Source: Escherichia phage vB_EcoM_PD328
Sequence record: ON922918
Direction: 5' to 3' (one strand)
Length of the DNA stretch: 59,156 nt
Shown: positions 3 to 10,189 of the stretch, in pieces
How the letters are laid out: each line of letters begins with the position of its first letter
Numbering within the stretch: position 1 is the stretch's first letter
Notes under the pieces: model-generated
Databases searched by the model: none
What the model was told of the DNA's origin: nothing
Seen by the model: only the letters and a program-made list of their open reading frames with translations
Made by a program: the position numbers and the translations under genes

Positions 3-1394
3 ATGCAGAAGCTCCAGGACTTACCGTTCCCAGCGCATTGGGCGCTGTCCATAGAGCAGATTGCTATTGTGCGCTTCTACTGTATTAACGACCTTGATAC
101 AACAATGGCTCTGTTTAACTCACTGGAAGAGCAAATCCATCTACGTGAGATTATGAGTGAAGAGTATAAAGTAGATCTTCGCTCTAAATCTGATGCACAA
201 ATTGCAGAAGCTGTAATCCGTCATGAGATGAAGCAAATGCTGGGCTTTGTACCACAGAAAGGGATGGTGGAAGTCGGTAGAACCTTTAGATACAATCCTC
301 CAGTGTGGTTAGGTTTCCAGACGCCACTAATGAAGTCCGTATTTCAGGTGGTGCTTGACAGTTACTTCCGAGTTGCAGAAGATGGTAAAATTAAGCAACC
401 ATCCACAATGAACTCTCTGAAGTTTACAATCAACCAGACAACTTACAACATGGGTATCGGTGGTCTGCACTCGTGCGAAGAGTTAATGGAGATTGTACCA
501 TCTGAAGACGAAGAGATGTGGGATGCTGACGTAACATCGTACTACCCAATCTGTATCATTAACCAGCAACTGTATCCTGAACACCTGGGCCCGCGCTTTA
601 TAGATATCTTCGTTAAGATCGTAGAACGACGTATTGCAGCTAAGATGGCTCATGACGATAAGACTGCACAAACTCTTAAGATCGTTATTAACGGTTCTTA
701 TGGTAAGTTTGGTTCACCGTTCTCTATTCTGTATGCACCGCATCTTATTATTCAGACCACATTGACAGGTCAGTTAGCTCTACTTATGCTCATTGAAACA
801 CTGGAGCTTAACGGTATCCAGGTTGTTAGTGCTAACACAGATGGTATCGTTATTAAACCTTGCAAAGCTAAGAAGCAATTAATGACTGATATCATTAAGT
901 GGTGGGAAGCGACAACTGGCTTTGAAATGGAACTGAATCAGTACCTGCGCCTTAATTCTGCAAACGTTAACAACTACGTCGCAATTAAGGCGGATGGTAA
1001 AGCCAAGCGTAAAGGTTGGTTCGCAGAGACAGGCCTTGCTAAGAACGCGGAAGGTGAGATCATCATGGATGCTGTGGTTAATCTTCTCCGTGACGGTACG
1101 CCAATTGCTAAAACTATCACAGAGTGTCAGGACATTCGTAAGTTTGTTTGTATCAAGACAGCTAATGGTGGAGCTGCGTGGAATAGTGAGCCATTAGGTA
1201 AGGTTGTTCGCTGGTACTATACAAAAGAAGAAGTACCTGAAATACTGATAGTCAAGAGTGGGGGTCGTGTCGGTAAGACAGCAGGGGGTAAACCAATGAT
1301 GGAACTCACTGACCAGTTACCGCCAGATCTCAACCACGAAGTATACATAGCTAAAGCGGAAAAATTGCTGGAAAAACTCGCATACGCCGCTTAA
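3..1394 (+). CDS. DNA polymerase, 3' part (gene begins at 58452 and wraps across the window join)
   Basis: Family-B-like polymerase motifs in translation: DVTSYYPICII (motif A-like), KIVINGSYGKFG (motif B-like), SANTDGIVI (motif C-like), KADGKAKRKGWF (KxY-like). In frame with the ORF that starts at 58452 once the 125-nt terminal duplication is accounted for. Confidence 0.75.
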   Translation: MQKLQDLPFPAHWALSIEQIAIVRFYCINDLDTTMALFNSLEEQIHLREIMSEEYKVDLRSKSDAQIAEAVIRHEMKQMLGFVPQKGMVEVGRTFRYNPPVWLGFQTPLMKSVFQVVLDSYFRVAEDGKIKQPSTMNSLKFTINQTTYNMGIGGLHSCEELMEIVPSEDEEMWDADVTSYYPICIINQQLYPEHLGPRFIDIFVKIVERRIAAKMAHDDKTAQTLKIVINGSYGKFGSPFSILYAPHLIIQTTLTGQLALLMLIETLELNGIQVVSANTDGIVIKPCKAKKQLMTDIIKWWEATTGFEMELNQYLRLNSANVNNYVAIKADGKAKRKGWFAETGLAKNAEGEIIMDAVVNLLRDGTPIAKTITECQDIRKFVCIKTANGGAAWNSEPLGKVVRWYYTKEEVPEILIVKSGGRVGKTAGGKPMMELTDQLPPDLNHEVYIAKAEKLLEKLAYAA

Positions 1395-1464: not shown

Positions 1465-2043
1465 TTATTCTGGAGACTCAGGCCAGATAATATTCTGTGG
1501 ATCATTTTCATTTATGCGGTTGACAAGTACACGAAACTTTCTCCACGAATCCAACATTGAACTTTCTTCGTCAGTAGCTAGATTATAAGTTACAGCATCT
1601 TGTAAAATACTGATTTTATAATCTGCTAAATTAAGAAGATCTGTTTTGTGTTGTGTTGCATCTGCAACCGACTTAGCATGTTGTGCGTCCGGATCGTTTA
1701 CCCACATATTGCCGTTCCACTTCATGTGTTCACCATCGGGAGCGATATAAGTTACATTATCCGGAAGCGACCCAATTGTGGTTATTACTAAAGGAAGTCC
1801 AGTATCTTTATCATATACAACTTTCCCTCGGTGGTCTTCAAGTAAGATCCATACTTGACTTTCTGGTCTAAATATTGCCACGTGATTTTCTGGAGCCACT
1901 GGAGGCTCCATGTCTGTGCAACCTGCTGGAAGACCTGTGTTGGCTACTACATACGCTTCACGGGTTCCCACATATTCGCCAGTATCGCTGGAGTAGTCGT
2001 ACACGGTTACAGTCTGGTCTTCATTACTCATTTCAAAAGACAT
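1465..2043 (-). CDS. tail fibre assembly protein (Tfa-like chaperone)
   Basis: 192 aa; C-terminal region (KFRVLVNRI...IWPESP) resembles the conserved Tfa C-terminal domain; sits immediately downstream of the tail fibre gene, with ATG overlapping the fibre stop. Confidence 0.65.
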   Translation of the reverse strand: MSFEMSNEDQTVTVYDYSSDTGEYVGTREAYVVANTGLPAGCTDMEPPVAPENHVAIFRPESQVWILLEDHRGKVVYDKDTGLPLVITTIGSLPDNVTYIAPDGEHMKWNGNMWVNDPDAQHAKSVADATQHKTDLLNLADYKISILQDAVTYNLATDEESSMLDSWRKFRVLVNRINENDPQNIIWPESPE

Positions 2044-5000
2044 TAAGCAGCCCTCACAATATAGTTGAATGCAACGTTCTTGACAGTGTTTTCTGTGTTG
2101 CCAGTTGCGTTAACTGTAACACCGTGGCTGTGTGAACCTAAAGCGACTGTGTGACTATGAGCACCAATACCAACTGTATGGGTATGAGCACCAATACCAA
2201 CAGTATGTGCGTGAGCGCCTGCGCTTGCAGCAGTACCAGATATAGAGTGCGAATGTGCCCCAGAAGAAGAAGTTCCAAGCGTATTACCACCACCGGCGGA
2301 TCCTCTTATAGCACCAATACCAGGAGCGTTGTTACTTCCCGCATAAAGAGCGCTTGTGTGGCTGTGCGCACCGGCGGTGTTTGTGGAACCGCTCAAACTA
2401 TGCGTATGCGCACCAGTATTATTACTCGTTTTAGTACCGTAATCGAAACTACTTGTCCCTTTAGTACCGTAATCAAAGCTAGAAGTCGTTTTACTTCCAA
2501 GATCGACAGATGCAGTAGACGCAGTGTGGGTATGCGATTTCACACCATCCGCTTCTGTAGAAAGTACGTCACGACCGCTTGCAGGCTTACCTTTGATAGT
2601 TTGACCACGCATGTCTGGCAGTACGCCCGACGGGTATGCAGCAGCCAATTGAGGGTATGCAGCTTTGTCGAATTCCTGCCCTTGCATCACGATGTATCCG
2701 GACGGAGGTGTATCCGTAGGCCACGGTAATGGGACACCTACAGGTAAACTTTCAGCTACAGGAGGTGGGTTCTTTTTAGTGTAAATTTGATCCCAGCCTT
2801 CTTCGAAACCGTGACCATCACGCGATGTACGATACCAAAGACCGCCATTCCTATACGTAGCTCTTATCTGCAAAGAAGGTGTTGAGGAGACAGCATTTTG
2901 ATAGTAATGCACTACAAGGTCCGAGCTGCCCTTTCTCGCATGCTTATAGACACCAGATATAGCGTTCCATGGAACACTGTTATTGTCTATATCACCTCCT
3001 ACAGTAATAATACCTGTTTGTCCTAACGCAAACGCATTCACGTTTCTAGGTGGAATCGATATATCTCCACTACCATCAAAAAGCACATTAGCAATCCTAC
3101 GTGCTGTCTGTAGTTTGGTGGCAGTTGCAGCGTTACCAGTTGTGTTCTGATTACCCTGAATGTTGACGCCTGGAAGATTGACGTCAGCAGTACCGTCGAA
3201 TGAGGCGCCACCAATTTTACGCGCAGTTTGTAGCTTCGTAGCACTGGACGCGTTACCATTCACACCTTGACCGGCGTTCAATTTAGTGCCAATAGTGAAC
3301 TCACCAGTAGCGTTATCAATCATAAATGGTCTTAGATTGTTCCAACCACCGTATTGATCGCCTTTAGCAGTGAATAAAAGATATGTCTTGGTGCCGTCAT
3401 TGCGCCATAATGCACCGTAGTCCCCACCAATCATACGGACCTGATTTCCACCGCGAGCTACAATTTCATCATTAGCGTAGATTTTACGACCACTAATATC
3501 TACATCCGTGATGAGTGCGTGCGAACTATAAAACCCTTTACCATTCGAGAAATCAAGTATAGTATCGGCCTCAATACATTCTGTTTTAGGGTTTGTGGCG
3601 CCCCATTTGTAAGTTGATTGCCCGATAACATAATCGGCAGATGGTACAACAACAGATAAGCCTTCTTCTACATATACAGCAATAGGAAACGCTTCACCTT
3701 CAACATAGAACACAGAACACAGATCATCCGCTTTGTTACCCATCATGATAGAATGAATAGCACGCTCATTTGCGCTATATGCGTGAAACATCCCATAAGC
3801 ATATTTTCCTCTGTCAGTCCAACCACCGGGCATGACAAATCCGTTGAACTCGCAGTTGTTTAGTCTATGGTCTCCTGTTCTTGAACGTGTACTTATCGTC
3901 ACCCTAGATGCTAATTCATCAACGAATCCAGCAGAACGACGAATGACCACAGGATAAAACTTACCTGCTTCAACTCCTGCGGGAGCATTCACTGTCGAAA
4001 ACTTCATTCCCCGTTTAGCGGCCATATCAGTCTTGCTGGCAGCATTAATGTTACTTAGAAAGCGACCCTTGTCCGGTATATCTGCACCGTTCTGATTCTT
4101 CTGCAATGCACCGAGAGCTAAGTTAACAGTCTCGCGTAAACCAACGTTATCAATGAACAGTTGCTTATTAGGAATGTCAGCACCGTTCTGGTCTTTGGCC
4201 AACTTACTGTTAATAAGTGTGGTTATAGTCGTTGCAAAGTTTGGATCATCACCAAGAGCGTCAGCTAACTCTTTCAGAGTGTTTAACGCATCTGGTGCAT
4301 CACCAATCAGTGCGCTTATAATTTGGTGCACAAACTGAGTTGTGGCAATCTGATTGTTATTAACTTCAGGTGCTGGAGTTGGTGCCGTTGGTACACCAGT
4401 TAGAACAGGACTACTTAACGGAGCTTTAGTATTAGCAACGTCCATGACTGCTTTAACAGCTTTCGGTGTAGCTGCCAGGTTCTCGGCGGTGCTGTTAGTA
4501 TCATTGCTAAGACGAACGATACCTTTAGTAGTCAAGGACGCATCTTCAAGACCAATTGCATCAGCAATCTCTTCCGCACGTTCAGCAGCAGCTTCTGAAC
4601 GCAAGGCGGCAGACTCAGATCTTCCAGCTGATGTACCAGCATTAGTTTCTGACGCTTTAGCGTTGGTTTCGCTCGCTTTAGCTGCGGTAGCACTAGCGGC
4701 AGACTCACCGGCTTTGTTAGTCGCAGTCTGAGCGGAAGCTGCCGCATTAGTTTCAGACGTAGACGCTGAAGCTGCCTTCTGTGTTGCAACCGTCTCACTT
4801 GCCTTAGCTGCATTAGCTGCGGTCTGCGATTTACCAGCAGAAGTAGCGGACTCAACTGCACTTGCTTCGGATGCGGCCTTTGCTGCCTCAGCAGCTACTT
4901 TCGCCTGATTAGCAGTGGTTGCACTTGCAGACGCTTCTTTTGCTTTAGTATCAGCCAAAGTCGCATTATTAGCAGATGCAGTTTCTGATACTTTAGCATT

Positions 5001-5660
5001 GTTAGCCGCAGTAGTTGCGGCATTTTTGAGAGCTGTTACTTCAGCGACGCCCTCTTCTTTAATATGCTGCGTGTCGGTTTTTAATTGCTGGACTTCAGCC
5101 TTGAGTCCTTGCACAGCAGTAAGAGCTTGTTGAGCTGATGTAGCAGAACCAGCCGCAGCGTTCTTGGATTGCAATGCGGAAGACGCACTAGCAGCAGATT
5201 CCTGTTTTGACAGCAGAGCTGACGCTGCGTCCGTTGCAGCAGAGTTTTTACTTGTCTCCGCATTAAGCTCACTCTTCTTAGCATTAGCAGCTGATTCAGA
5301 CGCTTGCAATGCAAATTGCTCAGAGTTAGCCACCAGTTGCTTTATCTCCTGAAGTATTTCAGGTGTGGTTTCTTCTGGAGCCCATTTAGTAAGATATGCG
5401 TTAAGTGAACCGTTCTGGCTATCCGCATAGATTACAATGTCACCCGCTTTATATGGTTCCTTACCTTCTGGCCCAATGATAACCACATAATGCCCGGTGT
5501 TCACTGTGACGTCGTAAGCACCTTGCGAATCGGTCTTAAATACCGCTTTACTTCCACCTAGGACTACAATAGTATTGCTTCGTGCAAGTAAGAAGACGTT
5601 TGCATTGACGATTGGTTTGTTCAATCCATCAACTAAAATACCATGTAAACGAATTGCCAT
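2043..5660 (-). CDS. tail fibre protein (long, L-shaped/side fibre type)
   Basis: 1205 aa; long Ala/Ser/Thr-rich coiled-coil shaft; internal repeats of the [11 protein letters not shown] type; Gly-rich C-terminus with multiple HxH repeats (GAHTHT, GAHSHT, GSHSHG). Confidence 0.8.
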
Positions 5661-5746
5661 GAGTTGTGCCCTTATATAAGATCGGGGTTTACATCTTAAA
5701 TTATATCCCTATATAGTTGTTACACACAAACATAAAGGAGTTTGAA

Positions 5747-6025
5747 ATGAAGACTTTAATCTGCGCCATTATCCTTTCTATGACTGCTACGTTTGCTTAT
5801 GCGTCTGGCTCTTCCGGTGGTACTGGTGGTCCAGGTAATGGTGGAGCTGGTGGTTCATCATTAGGTGGGCATACTGGTGGAGTAAGCAACATTGAGCACC
5901 AGACTGTCATCTACGAAGGTACTACAGCCGGTAAAGCTAAAGCTGAATGGATGAAAGGTAAAAAAGTTAAACCGGATTGCTCACCAGCTATGAACCGCGT
6001 TGGTTGGTCCGAAGGTTGTAAATAA
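5747..6025 (+). CDS. small secreted protein of unknown function (candidate receptor-masking or superinfection-exclusion factor)
   Basis: 92 aa from the internal ATG (residue 11 of the track ORF); AAGGAG RBS upstream; N-terminal signal peptide MKTLICAIILSMTATFAYA; Gly-rich mature part with two C-terminal Cys; opposite strand to the flanking tail genes. Confidence 0.5.
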   Translation: MKTLICAIILSMTATFAYASGSSGGTGGPGNGGAGGSSLGGHTGGVSNIEHQTVIYEGTTAGKAKAEWMKGKKVKPDCSPAMNRVGWSEGCK

Positions 6026-6030
6026 TAAAT

Positions 6031-6055
6031 AAGGGCCTTTCGGCCCTTATTTTAT
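6031..6055. terminator. bidirectional rho-independent terminator
   Basis: AAGGGCC-TTTC-GGCCCTT hairpin followed by a T-run; between convergent stops at 6025 (+) and 6052 (-). Confidence 0.7.
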
Positions 6056-9000
6056 GAGTAAGTAAAGGATCCTGAACCTCTTGTTACAATCATTGTTGGA
6101 CTTTTTAACCATCTTTTAGTAGCTCCCTGCTTAAATACGATTTTTGCAGTTACAGTTGACGCAGTAACACCTCTAAAAGTAGCCATAACTGTACCAGACG
6201 TGGCCAACATACCACCTTCTGGATCACGAACAGATGTGCCTGCGGCTGCGCTTTTTGTAACACCATTCACGATGATCTCTACCCCTAGTAACGCCCCTGG
6301 ATAGTTAGGGACACCAGAAAGGTTAGCCATGACTGTAATGGTCTTAGTTGTATTAGCTGTATCCTTATACGTGATTGTACGCGACATGTCATATGTACTA
6401 CCTTCGCCGTATAAATCGTCAGCAACACCCATGTTGCATACATCACCAATGAAACTAGTAGCTTCTACAGTCCCTTTGAACTTACCGCTTGTTGCTTGTA
6501 TCTCACCAGTGAATCTACCGCCATTAGCGTATACTATACCTCTGACAGTTACGTTGTTTAATTCAGCATCCCCAGCTTTATTTAACTTCCAACCAGCAGA
6601 ACCAGCTACATAGTTGTTAGATTGAATATAGTTACCGATCTTAGCATTATCAATAGAGCCGTTCTCAATGAACGTCGCCTTCATAAACACTTGACCGTTC
6701 TTAACTGCAAATGCTAAATCCGCTGTGCTGTTAGTTGGGTTATAGATAGCAAAGTTATTAGCGTTCACCATAAAGTAGGATTGGATAGCTCCACCGGAAC
6801 CTTCCATACCCAACTGAATACCAGCAACGTATTTCTGACCTTTACTATCTACCTGGATCTTAGCGCCCCACTGAGCGTTAACGTTACCTTCAAGGTCTAC
6901 AACAGACTTACTGACTTCCTGTACGGTAGCTTTGACCACATCAATCTGTTGGCCGTTTGTCTCGATCAACTTACCTTGAGCATCTATTAACTGCCCCTGT
7001 TCATTGATTGTGACGCCTTGTTGCTGCACTTTACCGTCAACAAGGACTACGGATTGTTGTACTGTGTCAATCGTCTGAGTTAAGCGGCCCTCGGACGTCT
7101 CGATTTGGTTGTCCACATAACTCTTGACACCATCGCTAACGTTTCCAATCTCAGCCATAAGTTCTCTATAGGTGTTAGTACCTTTGAACTCTGTGTCAAT
7201 TTGTGGAATAAGGCCAGCAGCGTCAGTAAAGCATCTTGCAGCCACCTCTACAAAAGAAGACGAACCGAAGGCGTTAATCGCTCGCACGTACCAGTAATAA
7301 GTGTGGTCATTGAGCAGTCCTTCTGAAGTCCACGTTGTACCCATACCGGCACGGGTAGCCTGTTTCTCTACCACATCTACAGCGGCAGATGGTAATCTTG
7401 TTTCACCGGACGTCCAGAAATCATATTGTGTACTAACGTTCGCTAAATCTGCAGATTTTGGTTTCAGTGTTACTGCAAAGTAACCTTGCGTTACTTCAAC
7501 AGATGTAGGAGCAGAAGGTGCCTGAATGTTAAATTCAAGATATGCTTCTGGGCTGGTTGCACCAGTATATGCTACAGCTTTCACATGTGCTGTATAAGCA
7601 CCGCGAATAAGCCCCGTAATTCGCGTGCTCTGGCCCGGTACTTGCACCGTCAATACGGTAACACCATCTTTCTTAATTATTACGTTGTTGTACGCTACAG
7701 CCATTATATTTTGCCACGACAGTACACCCTGTACCACGTCGCTAATCTGTAGGACCTCATATTGTAGGTTCTGAGGTTGCATAGCGCCACCAGTAGGTAG
7801 ATCCACTAAATCCGGTCGGTCTACAGGTTTACCAATCGCATCGTCCCACAAGTCCGGGAAGTCTTGACGCACAGTTACAGTGACACCGCCTTTCGGGTCA
7901 AACTGCCACTTAATGACTCGCATCTCTACCTTGTTCATTCCAATATTAGGAATGTCAACGTAAACGTACATACCTGGACGGAAACGATACCCGCGCATGT
8001 TGCACGGTATTTCAATAGAACGTCCAATGCGTTTGCGTTTCAATGTCAAGTTAGACAGACGTTGTGCCTGGTATGGGCTTGTCACAAAACGATAGTCCAC
8101 GTCTTGTGTAATTTCCTGTCCATCTTGTTTTATCCATTCCGCAACACTTACAGGAGGAAAGTCTGCTTCCTGATAGTTTTGTAGAGGATCAATGTAAGTA
8201 CCTGTGATTGTATTGGTGCGTTCTTTAAAAGCCGTTTCAGGTGTAATTTTAATGTCGCCAGCAATACAACTCGTGTCAAGTGTTAGTTCAGGAGGACCAT
8301 AATATGCACCGACAAGAATACCATGTTTACCGCCAATATAAGTTAACTCTCCGCCACAAGCGTCGAGCATATCCTCCAGAATCTTAGATGGAGCTTCGTC
8401 AATATCAAACTCACCATTTATGGTGTAACGAGGTTCGAATGTATTGTCTGCGTTCCTTACACTTTCATCACAGATATTAGCAGCTTCTTTGAACTGGTCC
8501 CAAAGAATTGCATCATCAGAACGCTTTAAGTATACTCGCAAATAATCTAGAATGACTAGAGCTGCGTTATTGCTAAATACCATCTTACCAGTTCTAGGAT
8601 CTAATACTTTACGACCTTTCTTAAGGCATTTAACGTTAGGTAGACCGGACGGGAATTTTTCAGAATCGAAAACAAGGTTTAATTGCATCCAGCAAATACC
8701 TTTACCAATCATGTCGCTCTTCCATGATGGGCAACGATTCAACATGTCCTGACTAACTTTAGTAGGATTGTTATGTATTACATATGACGCTTTATCACCA
8801 AAACTTTCGATAGCGTCATCACCTAACCACACTTGTCCTACAGCCGTTAGTTCGTGGCCTGCCAATGCAAGAACCAACGTCAGCTTTTCATGGTTCTCAC
8901 CGTGTTTGTCTGGTTCCTGTACTCCCGGTTCCTCTTCCGCAAATACAAGTACACCACTAGATACAGTTGACCCATAAACTACTGTCCTGGATGCAGCAGC

Positions 9001-9195
9001 AGCACGAATAACCTGCTTGCGCTCACTCTGAGATGTATAGGAGTCAAAGTTATAGCTCTGAGTCTTTGTAAGTAGACTACCAGCAGCACTGGCAGCAATC
9101 CCTATCACAAGAGCTACAGTGGCTGGGATTACACCGACAGCGGCACCGACAGCGGCACCGATAGCAACTACGGCTCCGATTATTGCTGGTGGCAT
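6052..9195 (-). CDS. tail tip / host-specificity protein (lambda J-like central fibre)
   Basis: 1047 aa; position after the minor tail proteins; fibronectin-III-like segment (YYWYVRAINAFGSSSF); hydrophobic Gly/Ala-rich N-terminus. Confidence 0.65.
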   Translation of the reverse strand: MPPAIIGAVVAIGAAVGAAVGVIPATVALVIGIAASAAGSLLTKTQSYNFDSYTSQSERKQVIRAAAASRTVVYGSTVSSGVLVFAEEEPGVQEPDKHGENHEKLTLVLALAGHELTAVGQVWLGDDAIESFGDKASYVIHNNPTKVSQDMLNRCPSWKSDMIGKGICWMQLNLVFDSEKFPSGLPNVKCLKKGRKVLDPRTGKMVFSNNAALVILDYLRVYLKRSDDAILWDQFKEAANICDESVRNADNTFEPRYTINGEFDIDEAPSKILEDMLDACGGELTYIGGKHGILVGAYYGPPELTLDTSCIAGDIKITPETAFKERTNTITGTYIDPLQNYQEADFPPVSVAEWIKQDGQEITQDVDYRFVTSPYQAQRLSNLTLKRKRIGRSIEIPCNMRGYRFRPGMYVYVDIPNIGMNKVEMRVIKWQFDPKGGVTVTVRQDFPDLWDDAIGKPVDRPDLVDLPTGGAMQPQNLQYEVLQISDVVQGVLSWQNIMAVAYNNVIIKKDGVTVLTVQVPGQSTRITGLIRGAYTAHVKAVAYTGATSPEAYLEFNIQAPSAPTSVEVTQGYFAVTLKPKSADLANVSTQYDFWTSGETRLPSAAVDVVEKQATRAGMGTTWTSEGLLNDHTYYWYVRAINAFGSSSFVEVAARCFTDAAGLIPQIDTEFKGTNTYRELMAEIGNVSDGVKSYVDNQIETSEGRLTQTIDTVQQSVVLVDGKVQQQGVTINEQGQLIDAQGKLIETNGQQIDVVKATVQEVSKSVVDLEGNVNAQWGAKIQVDSKGQKYVAGIQLGMEGSGGAIQSYFMVNANNFAIYNPTNSTADLAFAVKNGQVFMKATFIENGSIDNAKIGNYIQSNNYVAGSAGWKLNKAGDAELNNVTVRGIVYANGGRFTGEIQATSGKFKGTVEATSFIGDVCNMGVADDLYGEGSTYDMSRTITYKDTANTTKTITVMANLSGVPNYPGALLGVEIIVNGVTKSAAAGTSVRDPEGGMLATSGTVMATFRGVTASTVTAKIVFKQGATKRWLKSPTMIVTRGSGSFTYS

Positions 9196-9630
9196 TTACA
9201 CCCTCCACGCGTCTGTAATTTCGACGTCCGTTAGTTTAAAGGTAACAACACCATTCGGACCCATTGCCCAAATGCAACCAGTCCACAGTACCCCAGCAGT
9301 TAAGCCAAGATCACCGTTAAATGTCACTACGTCACCGCGTTGAGCAAACTTTTTGTCTACACGAACTGGTAAGAATGAGTCCAGAACCATTGCAAGAGAT
9401 GTGTCTTTAACTCGTTTCAGCATAAAGCGTTTGCAGCTAATCTCCGAGTCATATTGACCAATAACTTCATCTGCAATCTTTGTACCATATTGAGCATCAA
9501 TACACTTAGCCGCAAAGATGCAGCAATCGTTTTGGCCCCATTGGAAAGGTACTTCTTTGAGGGAGTTAACTGTGGTCAGCAATCTCATCTGCCAACCTGG
9601 AGTCTTACTCGTAACTGAATCCTGGTGCAT
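9196..9630 (-). CDS. tail assembly protein with NlpC/P60-like motif (lambda K-like); start uncertain
   Basis: WGQNDCCIFAAKCIDAQYG motif; track ORF extends to 9846 but overlaps the upstream gene by 240 nt, so the internal ATG at 9630 (residue 73) was chosen; ATGs at 9678 and 9723 are alternatives. Confidence 0.4.
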   Translation of the reverse strand: MHQDSVTSKTPGWQMRLLTTVNSLKEVPFQWGQNDCCIFAAKCIDAQYGTKIADEVIGQYDSEISCKRFMLKRVKDTSLAMVLDSFLPVRVDKKFAQRGDVVTFNGDLGLTAGVLWTGCIWAMGPNGVVTFKLTDVEITDAWRV

Positions 9631-10189
9631 CTTTTTTACTTCCCCAATAGATTGAACGCTCCGCCATTTGTGCAACATATCTAAAGAAGCGATCTCCTGG
9701 ATGTAATCGTTGTTGGCTTTCATCCGTGTAACGATCCGGTATACCGGAAGACCACTTTTCAAATATATTTGACACCGTATATGTGATAGCGTTTGTTGTG
9801 CCCGCTTGCATTGCAGTATCACTAATAAAACCTTCAAAAAGGACATTGGCGTTAGTCACCTGCCCTCTTTCATCCATAGTAGCGATATAACATTTCACAT
9901 CGCGTCCTACGCAGTTTTCATTGAGTGTCTGCCCAACAAGTGTCATATCAAGTCCACTTAATGTAAGAGACATTGTACTTGCACTGGTAGTGTTCTCTTC
10001 TGTGACACCACCTACATCACCAAGATTACCAACACCAACGAATGTCTGTCCATCAATAGATAATACACCAGTACCGGAGTGGACTCTTGTTGTTCCTGAA
10101 TCAAAATGAATTGCAACTGCAATTATCATCGTGACACTAGGTTGTTCCATGGAGTCCAATAAAGAGTCACTAAACGGACTAAATATCAT
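9605..10189 (-). CDS. minor tail protein
   Basis: 194 aa ORF between tape measure and tip genes in a tightly packed tail module; no specific motif recognised. Confidence 0.45.
   Translation of the reverse strand: MIFSPFSDSLLDSMEQPSVTMIIAVAIHFDSGTTRVHSGTGVLSIDGQTFVGVGNLGDVGGVTEENTTSASTMSLTLSGLDMTLVGQTLNENCVGRDVKCYIATMDERGQVTNANVLFEGFISDTAMQAGTTNAITYTVSNIFEKWSSGIPDRYTDESQQRLHPGDRFFRYVAQMAERSIYWGSKKDAPGFSYE

Follow-up and report, generated by a model that had tools for sequence, protein, structure and literature searches.

The open reading frame at positions 5747–6025 (plus strand) of the window analysed here, a 59,156-nucleotide stretch of DNA from Escherichia phage vB_EcoM_PD328 (ON922918), encodes, by every indication in its sequence, a real and strongly conserved exported mini-protein. 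Its gene is positioned like those of the exclusion proteins Cor, Llp and Rtp45, but sequence comparison places it outside those families. The best reading of the product, reached by analogy, is a soluble periplasmic entry blocker that forms part of a host-recognition cassette. Blocking of a receptor from the periplasm appears to be the most likely mechanism, and a block after adsorption, of the kind exerted by the T4 protein Spackle, is its main rival. The original prediction of a receptor blocker or exclusion factor is partly supported; its analogy to the lipoprotein blockers fails on their defining feature, the lipid anchor.

Genomic setting and expression signals

Between positions 4500 and 7500 the window has 88–93% DNA identity to the Nonagvirus genomes JenK1, HdK1, HdSG1, 9g and ESCO3, and on this evidence it is assigned to Nonagvirus (9g/JenK1-like; subfamily Queuovirinae). 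The small gene lies between two large genes of the minus strand. One encodes a gpJ-like tail-tip (central fibre) protein of 1047 amino acids (6052–9195; phrog_31, E = 1.6e-180). The other encodes the lateral tail fibre, of 1205 amino acids (2043–5660; phrog_295, E = 3.7e-214), and is followed on the same strand by the gene for the fibre's assembly protein (1465–2043). The junction at which a DNA polymerase frame (3–1394, plus strand) converges on this assembly gene forms the other border of the 28-kb minus-strand structural block. The polymerase frame matches positions 185–653 of the 663 in the phrog_1252 profile, and its true start may precede the window. Upstream of gpJ, two minus-strand frames overlap (9196–9846 and 9605–10189). 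In JenK1 the counterpart of the first is annotated with 144 amino acids, and in ESCO3 it is called a 'lipoprotein'; the true start of the frame is therefore probably internal.

The small frame runs from an ATG at 5747 to a TAA at 6023–6025 and specifies 92 amino acids, identical to the sequence quoted in the original prediction. The ribosome-binding site attributed to it, a Shine–Dalgarno sequence AAGGAG, is read at 5735–5740 (plus strand), 6 nt 5' of the start codon. That this is the only plus-strand gene in about 28 kb agrees with the ORF map of the window and with the RefSeq annotation of JenK1, where the homologue gp21 is the sole opposite-strand CDS among gp01–gp28. A candidate sigma-70-like promoter (TTTACA-18 nt-TATAGT; 5688–5717, plus strand) has 10 of 12 matches and is well placed. 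Its region is kept in JenK1, ESCO3 and the prophage copies of the cassette described below. The same scan found no promoter in the L007 and Gifsy-2 copies, and promoter-like sites are no more numerous here than expected from shuffled sequence. The candidate promoter is the weakest item of the observation. The bidirectional terminator that had been proposed is a convincing candidate: a hairpin with an 11-bp stem (6027–6052) occupies the entire 26-nt gap separating the convergent stop codons of the small frame and gpJ. It is predicted to be stable on either strand (-16.3 and -17.7 kcal/mol; z of -3.5 and -6.2), and equivalent hairpins are present in L007 and L027. A search of Rfam over the region returned a single sub-threshold chance match.

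The reverse orientation is not peculiar to this gene. In Queuovirinae, all alleles seen between gpJ and the lateral fibre gene, at what Maffei et al. name the RBP locus, are carried on the opposite strand. These include proteins that are not secreted: a 321-amino acid protein of Bas20 and proteins of 93 and 204 amino acids in JenP1. The corresponding allele coordinates are L018:2346–3311 (Bas20) and L020:2441–3339 (JenP1). Since non-secreted alleles are reversed as well, orientation is uninformative about early or independent expression. Late virion components encoded on the opposite strand at the RBP locus would be transcribed convergently to the remaining tail operon.

A conserved family of predicted exported proteins

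The protein is a member of PHROG 2243. Its residues 1–92 align with positions 3–86 of the 87 in the profile (E = 8.5e-29), and relatives from Gifsy-2 (E = 8.4e-41), Klebsiella and Enterobacter phages match the same model. More than 120 homologous clusters were found. Selection is strongly purifying, with pN/pS values of 0.06–0.2 across the comparisons of the small protein. Within the conserved domain, the window and JenK1 differ at nine synonymous and two non-synonymous positions, and the domain is 98% identical at the protein level. Against the T1-like copies, pS is about 0.8–0.9 (saturated) and pN/pS is 0.12–0.17. Codon comparison found the loop CSPAMNRVGWSEGC to be invariant apart from a conservative S79T in L010. 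The profile match, the number of clusters and the low pN/pS together indicate that the small frame is more than a chance occurrence.

The family is narrow: only 14 representatives, none of them an annotated distant relative, emerged when 1.84 billion representative proteins were searched exhaustively with HMMER. All but one are about 43–112 amino acids long; the odd match, an 803-amino acid protein (E = 5e-4), covers profile positions 24–52 only. Scans of the small protein against Pfam, NCBIfam and PADLOC gave nothing meaningful. A profile search against all PDB chains found no match at E up to 10, the solved structures of Spackle included (PDB 6X6O is the structure named in the Spackle paper). 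Two AlphaFold models, of moderate confidence (mean pLDDT 60 and 70), had no Foldseek match in the PDB and one weak match in BFVD, to an 83-amino acid protein (42% identity, E = 0.047) that is possibly a family member. The 9g genome paper contains nothing on this frame, and a search of the Salmonella literature through the neighbouring locus tags STM1049 and STM2589 yielded no paper on the Gifsy genes.

Features were counted across 115 full-length family members. The classical Sec signal peptide of the original prediction is borne out by rule, the only basis on which it was assessed: the N-terminus, MKTLICAIILSMTATFAYA, carries a single Lys and a hydrophobic core, whose Kyte–Doolittle 10-residue mean reaches 2.6, as well as a small-x-small site (TFA/AYA) at which cleavage is predicted after TFA17 or AYA19. 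The signal, residues 1–19 (5747–5803, plus strand), is of the Sec/signal peptidase I (SPase I) type. A hydrophobic core is found in all 115 members, Lys or Arg within the first eight residues in 114 of 115, and Ala at the -1 position of the site in 103 of 112. The lipobox [LVI][ASTVI][GAS]C is absent from the window protein and from every one of the 115.

Removal of this signal would leave a mature protein of 73 amino acids with 19 Gly. A Gly-rich mature part of about 70 residues had been described; the length stands, but the enrichment in Gly is limited to a 25-residue Gly/Ser-rich linker at residues 20–44 (5804–5878, plus strand), which holds 13 of the Gly. AlphaFold predicts disorder there, with pLDDT below 50 for residues 17–44. 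The linker is 6–14 amino acids long in most family members and 19–31 in the group formed by E. coli Nonagvirus and prophage copies, and the Gly/Ser-rich stretch is missing in most relatives. Variation occurs by in-frame, GGx-rich insertions and deletions, giving proteins of 92, 93, 96 and 101 amino acids (homologues in L002, L003, L005, L006 and L026). Tandem Repeats Finder detected no array in the Gly-rich stretch.

Conservation is confined to the last 48 residues of the protein, GVSNIEHQTVIYEGTTAGKAKAEWMKGKKVKPDCSPAMNRVGWSEGCK (5879–6022, plus strand). The conserved pattern of this domain is GVSNIExQTxIYExTxxGKxxAEWxKGKxVKPDCSPAMNRVGWSEGCK, and the motif G-V-S-N-I-E...Y-E-x-T-x-x-G-K...E-W-x-K-G occurs in 111 of the 115 members. 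The two C-terminal Cys noted originally are C78 and C91, which enclose a 12-residue loop; at least two Cys are present in the mature part of 103 of the 115. AlphaFold places helices at 48–58, 60–69 and 80–84, with a pLDDT of about 70–84 in the domain. The domain is thus predicted to be a two-helix hairpin with a short helix within the loop closed by C78 and C91. The window protein conforms to the architecture shared across PHROG 2243: signal peptide, short linker, motif and then a Cys-closed C-terminal loop. We infer that the Gly-rich part is a dispensable tether and the small C-terminal domain the functional unit.

Exchange together with the gpJ receptor-binding domain

All contexts examined have the PHROG 2243 gene just past the 3' terminus of gpJ or of the terminal tail-fibre gene. 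When it is convergent with gpJ, the gap between the two is usually about 26–35 nt. Carriers are Nonagvirus isolates, T1-like contigs of about 50 kb (gpJ of 1275–1335 amino acids), a 44-kb Dhillonvirus-like contig, a 58-kb Queuovirinae-like contig, Klebsiella siphophages of about 48 kb, Enterobacter phage N5822 and E. coli lambdoid prophages (three of 5426 complete E. coli genomes). In the Salmonella prophages Gifsy-1 and Gifsy-2 the genes STM2589.1n and STM1049.2n are co-directional between J and the side tail fibre gene. The Gifsy-2 gene (L014:4883–5201) is flanked by terminator-like hairpins, after a J pseudogene and before stf; Gifsy-2 J is annotated as two CDS. That strictly virulent phages carry the gene speaks for a role of use to the phage itself.

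The gpJ proteins of these loci end in a variable receptor-binding domain, the last 115–134 residues after an F[IVL]GD motif, and no separate receptor-binding gene is found in the loci. In the window this domain is the last 133 residues after FIGD (6055–6453, minus strand). It is 88% identical to those of lambdoid prophages of E. coli ET245 and 21AR0133. This allele is absent from the isolated phages of the collection, among which its best tblastn match is about 35%, and it is only 34% identical to the first 71 residues of the Gifsy domain. Assignment of a receptor from gpJ-domain similarity was dropped on account of these low and partial matches.

Several comparisons show that the domain and the small gene form one exchangeable unit. 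Over 1.1 kb (5574–6672) the window has 93.6% DNA identity to the ET245 lambdoid prophage, and this cassette comprises the 29 first codons of the lateral fibre gene, the candidate promoter, the small frame, the hairpin and the end of gpJ. In the ET245 prophage (L025:8640–9001), a Nonagvirus-type fibre remnant of 29 codons is fused out of frame to a C-terminal fragment of DUF6453. This remnant looks like the scar of a cassette transfer between virulent and temperate phages. The CUPF06 prophage likewise carries the small gene next to a domain of the JenK1/ESCO3 type (97% identity in the domain). T1-like and Dhillonvirus-like contigs (L023/L027) share a distinct domain class together with a distinct small-protein subtype and Cys pattern; their receptor-binding domains are 39% identical, their small proteins 75% and their gpJ cores 34%. 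Domain and small gene have thus travelled jointly among virulent and temperate phages, though not in strict coupling.

The exception is provided by the window and JenK1. Their receptor-binding domains are 20–21% identical, despite near-identical small proteins (98% in the conserved domain; over all such pairings, small proteins 98–100% identical in this domain accompany receptor-binding domains 20–22% identical), and the recombination breakpoint falls exactly at the stop codon of the small gene, a clean domain swap. Strict co-variation of the small frame with the receptor-binding domain was rejected on the strength of this breakpoint. One small protein combined with domains about 21% identical implies either that these domains bind one receptor or that the small protein is not receptor-specific. 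Every comparison shows the small protein to be much better conserved than the receptor-binding domain beside it. Similarity among the small proteins does not track gpJ-core lineage, and their Cys-closed loop is not the same in phages isolated with E. coli, Klebsiella, Enterobacter or Salmonella as host.

Candidate functions and mechanism

The setting corresponds to the hypervariable locus of small siphophages to which Maffei et al. ascribe receptor binding and superinfection exclusion. Downstream of gpJ, this locus encodes the exclusion proteins Cor, Llp and Rtp45 in T1-like, T5-like and RTP-like phages, and the exclusion proteins known at such loci are periplasmic lipoproteins of about 6 kDa. 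Llp binds the periplasmic face of FhuA. Rtp45, in which an intramolecular disulfide (Cys30–Cys38) has been solved, binds the periplasmic face of LptDE. Like Cor (T1, phi80, N15, HK022), Llp (T5) and Rtp45 (RTP), the small protein has its gene next to that for a tail-tip or receptor-binding protein, at a hypervariable locus subject to horizontal exchange, and is predicted to reach the periplasm. It also resembles Rtp45 in size (about 6 kDa there, a conserved domain of 48 amino acids here) and in having one intramolecular disulfide, solved there and inferred here. The difference lies in membrane attachment: those proteins have a lipobox and an N-terminal lipid anchor in the outer membrane, whereas PHROG 2243 proteins have an SPase I-type signal. 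PDB searches, which for the fold used the moderate-confidence models, detected no sequence or fold similarity of the small protein to Llp or Rtp45. The characterized receptor blockers at this locus are all lipoproteins, and a free periplasmic domain of 5 kDa is without precedent there.

A lipoprotein also occurs in the same slot within sister Queuovirinae. Phages 9g (L001:4243–4476) and Bas21 (L019:2860–3093) encode nearly the same 77-amino acid lipobox lipoprotein (PHROG 12984), whose gene sits between gpJ and the lateral fibre gene in the place and direction that the small gene has in the window. It likewise has two C-terminal Cys, and it is conserved though the adjoining gpJ receptor-binding domains are 23% identical. 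It differs from the small protein in its unrelated sequence and its classical lipobox, LTAC. The positional analogy drawn in the original prediction therefore proves stronger than could then be seen: the locus is a hypervariable host-recognition locus, a lipoprotein fills the slot in 9g and Bas21, and the gene is exchanged with the gpJ domain. The wider analogy to receptor blockers and exclusion factors is upheld for the place beside gpJ, but not for the nature of the protein, as the precedents cited are lipid-anchored, a lipobox occurs in 0 of 115 members and there is no homology.

The following sequence of events is proposed. (i) Transcription would proceed convergently to gpJ, probably from the gene's own sigma-70-like promoter, and is predicted to end at the shared hairpin. 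(ii) Translation would begin at the strong ribosome-binding site seen in the sequence. (iii) The product is predicted by rule to be exported by the Sec system, with signal peptidase I cleaving it near residue 19; the signal is universal in the family. (iv) In the periplasm, C78 and C91 would close the 12-residue loop on the two-helix hairpin. (v) The Gly-rich N-terminal stretch would remain a floppy, dispensable extension. (vi) The 48-residue domain would bind the periplasmic side of the receptor, so that the infected cell, the lysogen or cell debris refuses phages of the same receptor class. The outcome would be exclusion as exerted by Cor, Llp and Rtp45, achieved without a lipid anchor. That the domain attaches on the periplasmic side to whichever outer-membrane protein the adjoining gpJ domain uses, and thereby brings about superinfection exclusion and protection of progeny, is a serious possibility by analogy, held at somewhat less than even confidence. 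OmpC is the first candidate for the receptor. Gifsy-1 and Gifsy-2 use OmpC and are the only family carriers with a published receptor, so that the link comes from these phages alone. In the BASEL study of Maffei et al. the JenK1/HdK1/HdSG1 module was matched to no receptor, and in the literature searched a receptor for JenK1 is not reported. A strictly receptor-specific blocker fits less easily with the sharing of one small protein by domains about 21% identical.

The main rival is a protein that acts after adsorption. It would bind a part of the arriving tail tip, or a host factor of the periplasm or inner membrane that DNA passage requires, so that ejection is stopped while adsorption is kept. 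The model is Spackle of T4, a proven superinfection-exclusion factor that is Sec-exported, soluble and helical, has a mature length of about 75 amino acids and one disulfide, and inhibits the gp5 tail lysozyme. With its predicted soluble export, mature length of 73 amino acids, predicted helices and two Cys, the small protein is by analogy nearer in architecture to Spackle than to the lipoprotein blockers. Decoupling from the sequence of the gpJ domain would be expected if the target were not the receptor. A lambda-type J/K/I/L tail tip is common to all carriers, and siphophage groups need periplasmic or inner-membrane factors, of which a preprint lists DcrB, SdaC and MetQ. Against this stand the lack of homology to Spackle in the PDB profile search and the behaviour of the family across lineages. 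A conserved virion target is hard to reconcile with small-protein similarity that does not track gpJ-core lineage, and in the L023/L027 pair the subtypes follow the class of the receptor-binding domain. A block after adsorption is accordingly considered unlikely, yet well worth keeping in view, and receptor blocking from the periplasm is preferred.

The gene might instead be a lysogenic-conversion moron of the Lom or Bor type, one that benefits the host in envelope stress, serum resistance or host interaction and hitch-hikes at the J–stf junction. In keeping with this, family members are found in E. coli and Salmonella prophages, they occupy the J–stf slot in Gifsy-1 and Gifsy-2, and the Gifsy-2 copy sits between terminator-like hairpins. 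Lambda carries lom in this very slot. The Lom protein, a beta-barrel of the outer membrane with roughly 200 amino acids, benefits the lysogen, whereas the small protein is a predicted helical mini-protein found mostly in virulent phages. As an independently transcribed insert in a late operon, a moron would be flanked by a promoter and a terminator of its own; here the hairpin is convincing, but the candidate promoter does not stand out from shuffled sequence. A host-benefit moron is made less likely by the fact that most carriers (Nonagvirus, T1-like, Klebsiella and Enterobacter siphophages) are obligately virulent. A gene for host fitness would have no pay-off in them, and strong purifying selection is upheld in these lineages. 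The probability of this explanation is put low, clearly below that of a block after adsorption.

Two further identities, a Gly-rich secreted toxin or peptide of microcin type and a protein assisting lysis, such as a spanin, were rejected as highly improbable: class II microcins such as colicin V do combine a Gly-rich stretch with a C-terminal Cys pair, but the likeness is superficial, since the leader here is a classical Sec signal instead of a double-glycine leader, the Gly-rich stretch is missing in most family members and the neighbours are only tail fibre and gpJ genes, with no immunity or export genes nearby, while a spanin is contradicted by the lack of both lipobox and transmembrane segment and by a location outside the lysis cassette. 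A role as virion component was also rejected, because an exported protein cannot assemble into virions in the cytoplasm.

Exclusion proteins whose genes adjoin receptor-binding genes determine which phages may infect one cell together and whether progeny are lost to cell debris, and receptor specificity is predicted from their presence in genomes. If the function of the small protein is not exclusion, this is an ordinary conserved hypothetical gene. In its broadest form, the entry-blocking interpretation would make PHROG 2243 an unrecognized, lipid-free class of entry blockers in temperate and virulent siphophages, directed at a conserved envelope target shared by domains about 20% identical and marking an unassigned entry route with OmpC as the lead; this extended version is speculative and rather doubtful. 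Should blocking from the periplasm prove true, an anchor-free soluble family present in at least five phage lineages and in Salmonella and E. coli prophages would extend the repertoire of exclusion proteins. It would offer a 48-residue, disulfide-stabilized scaffold for binding a target in the envelope from the periplasmic side. It would also provide a genomic marker for the sole host-recognition module of Nonagvirus left unassigned in the BASEL study.
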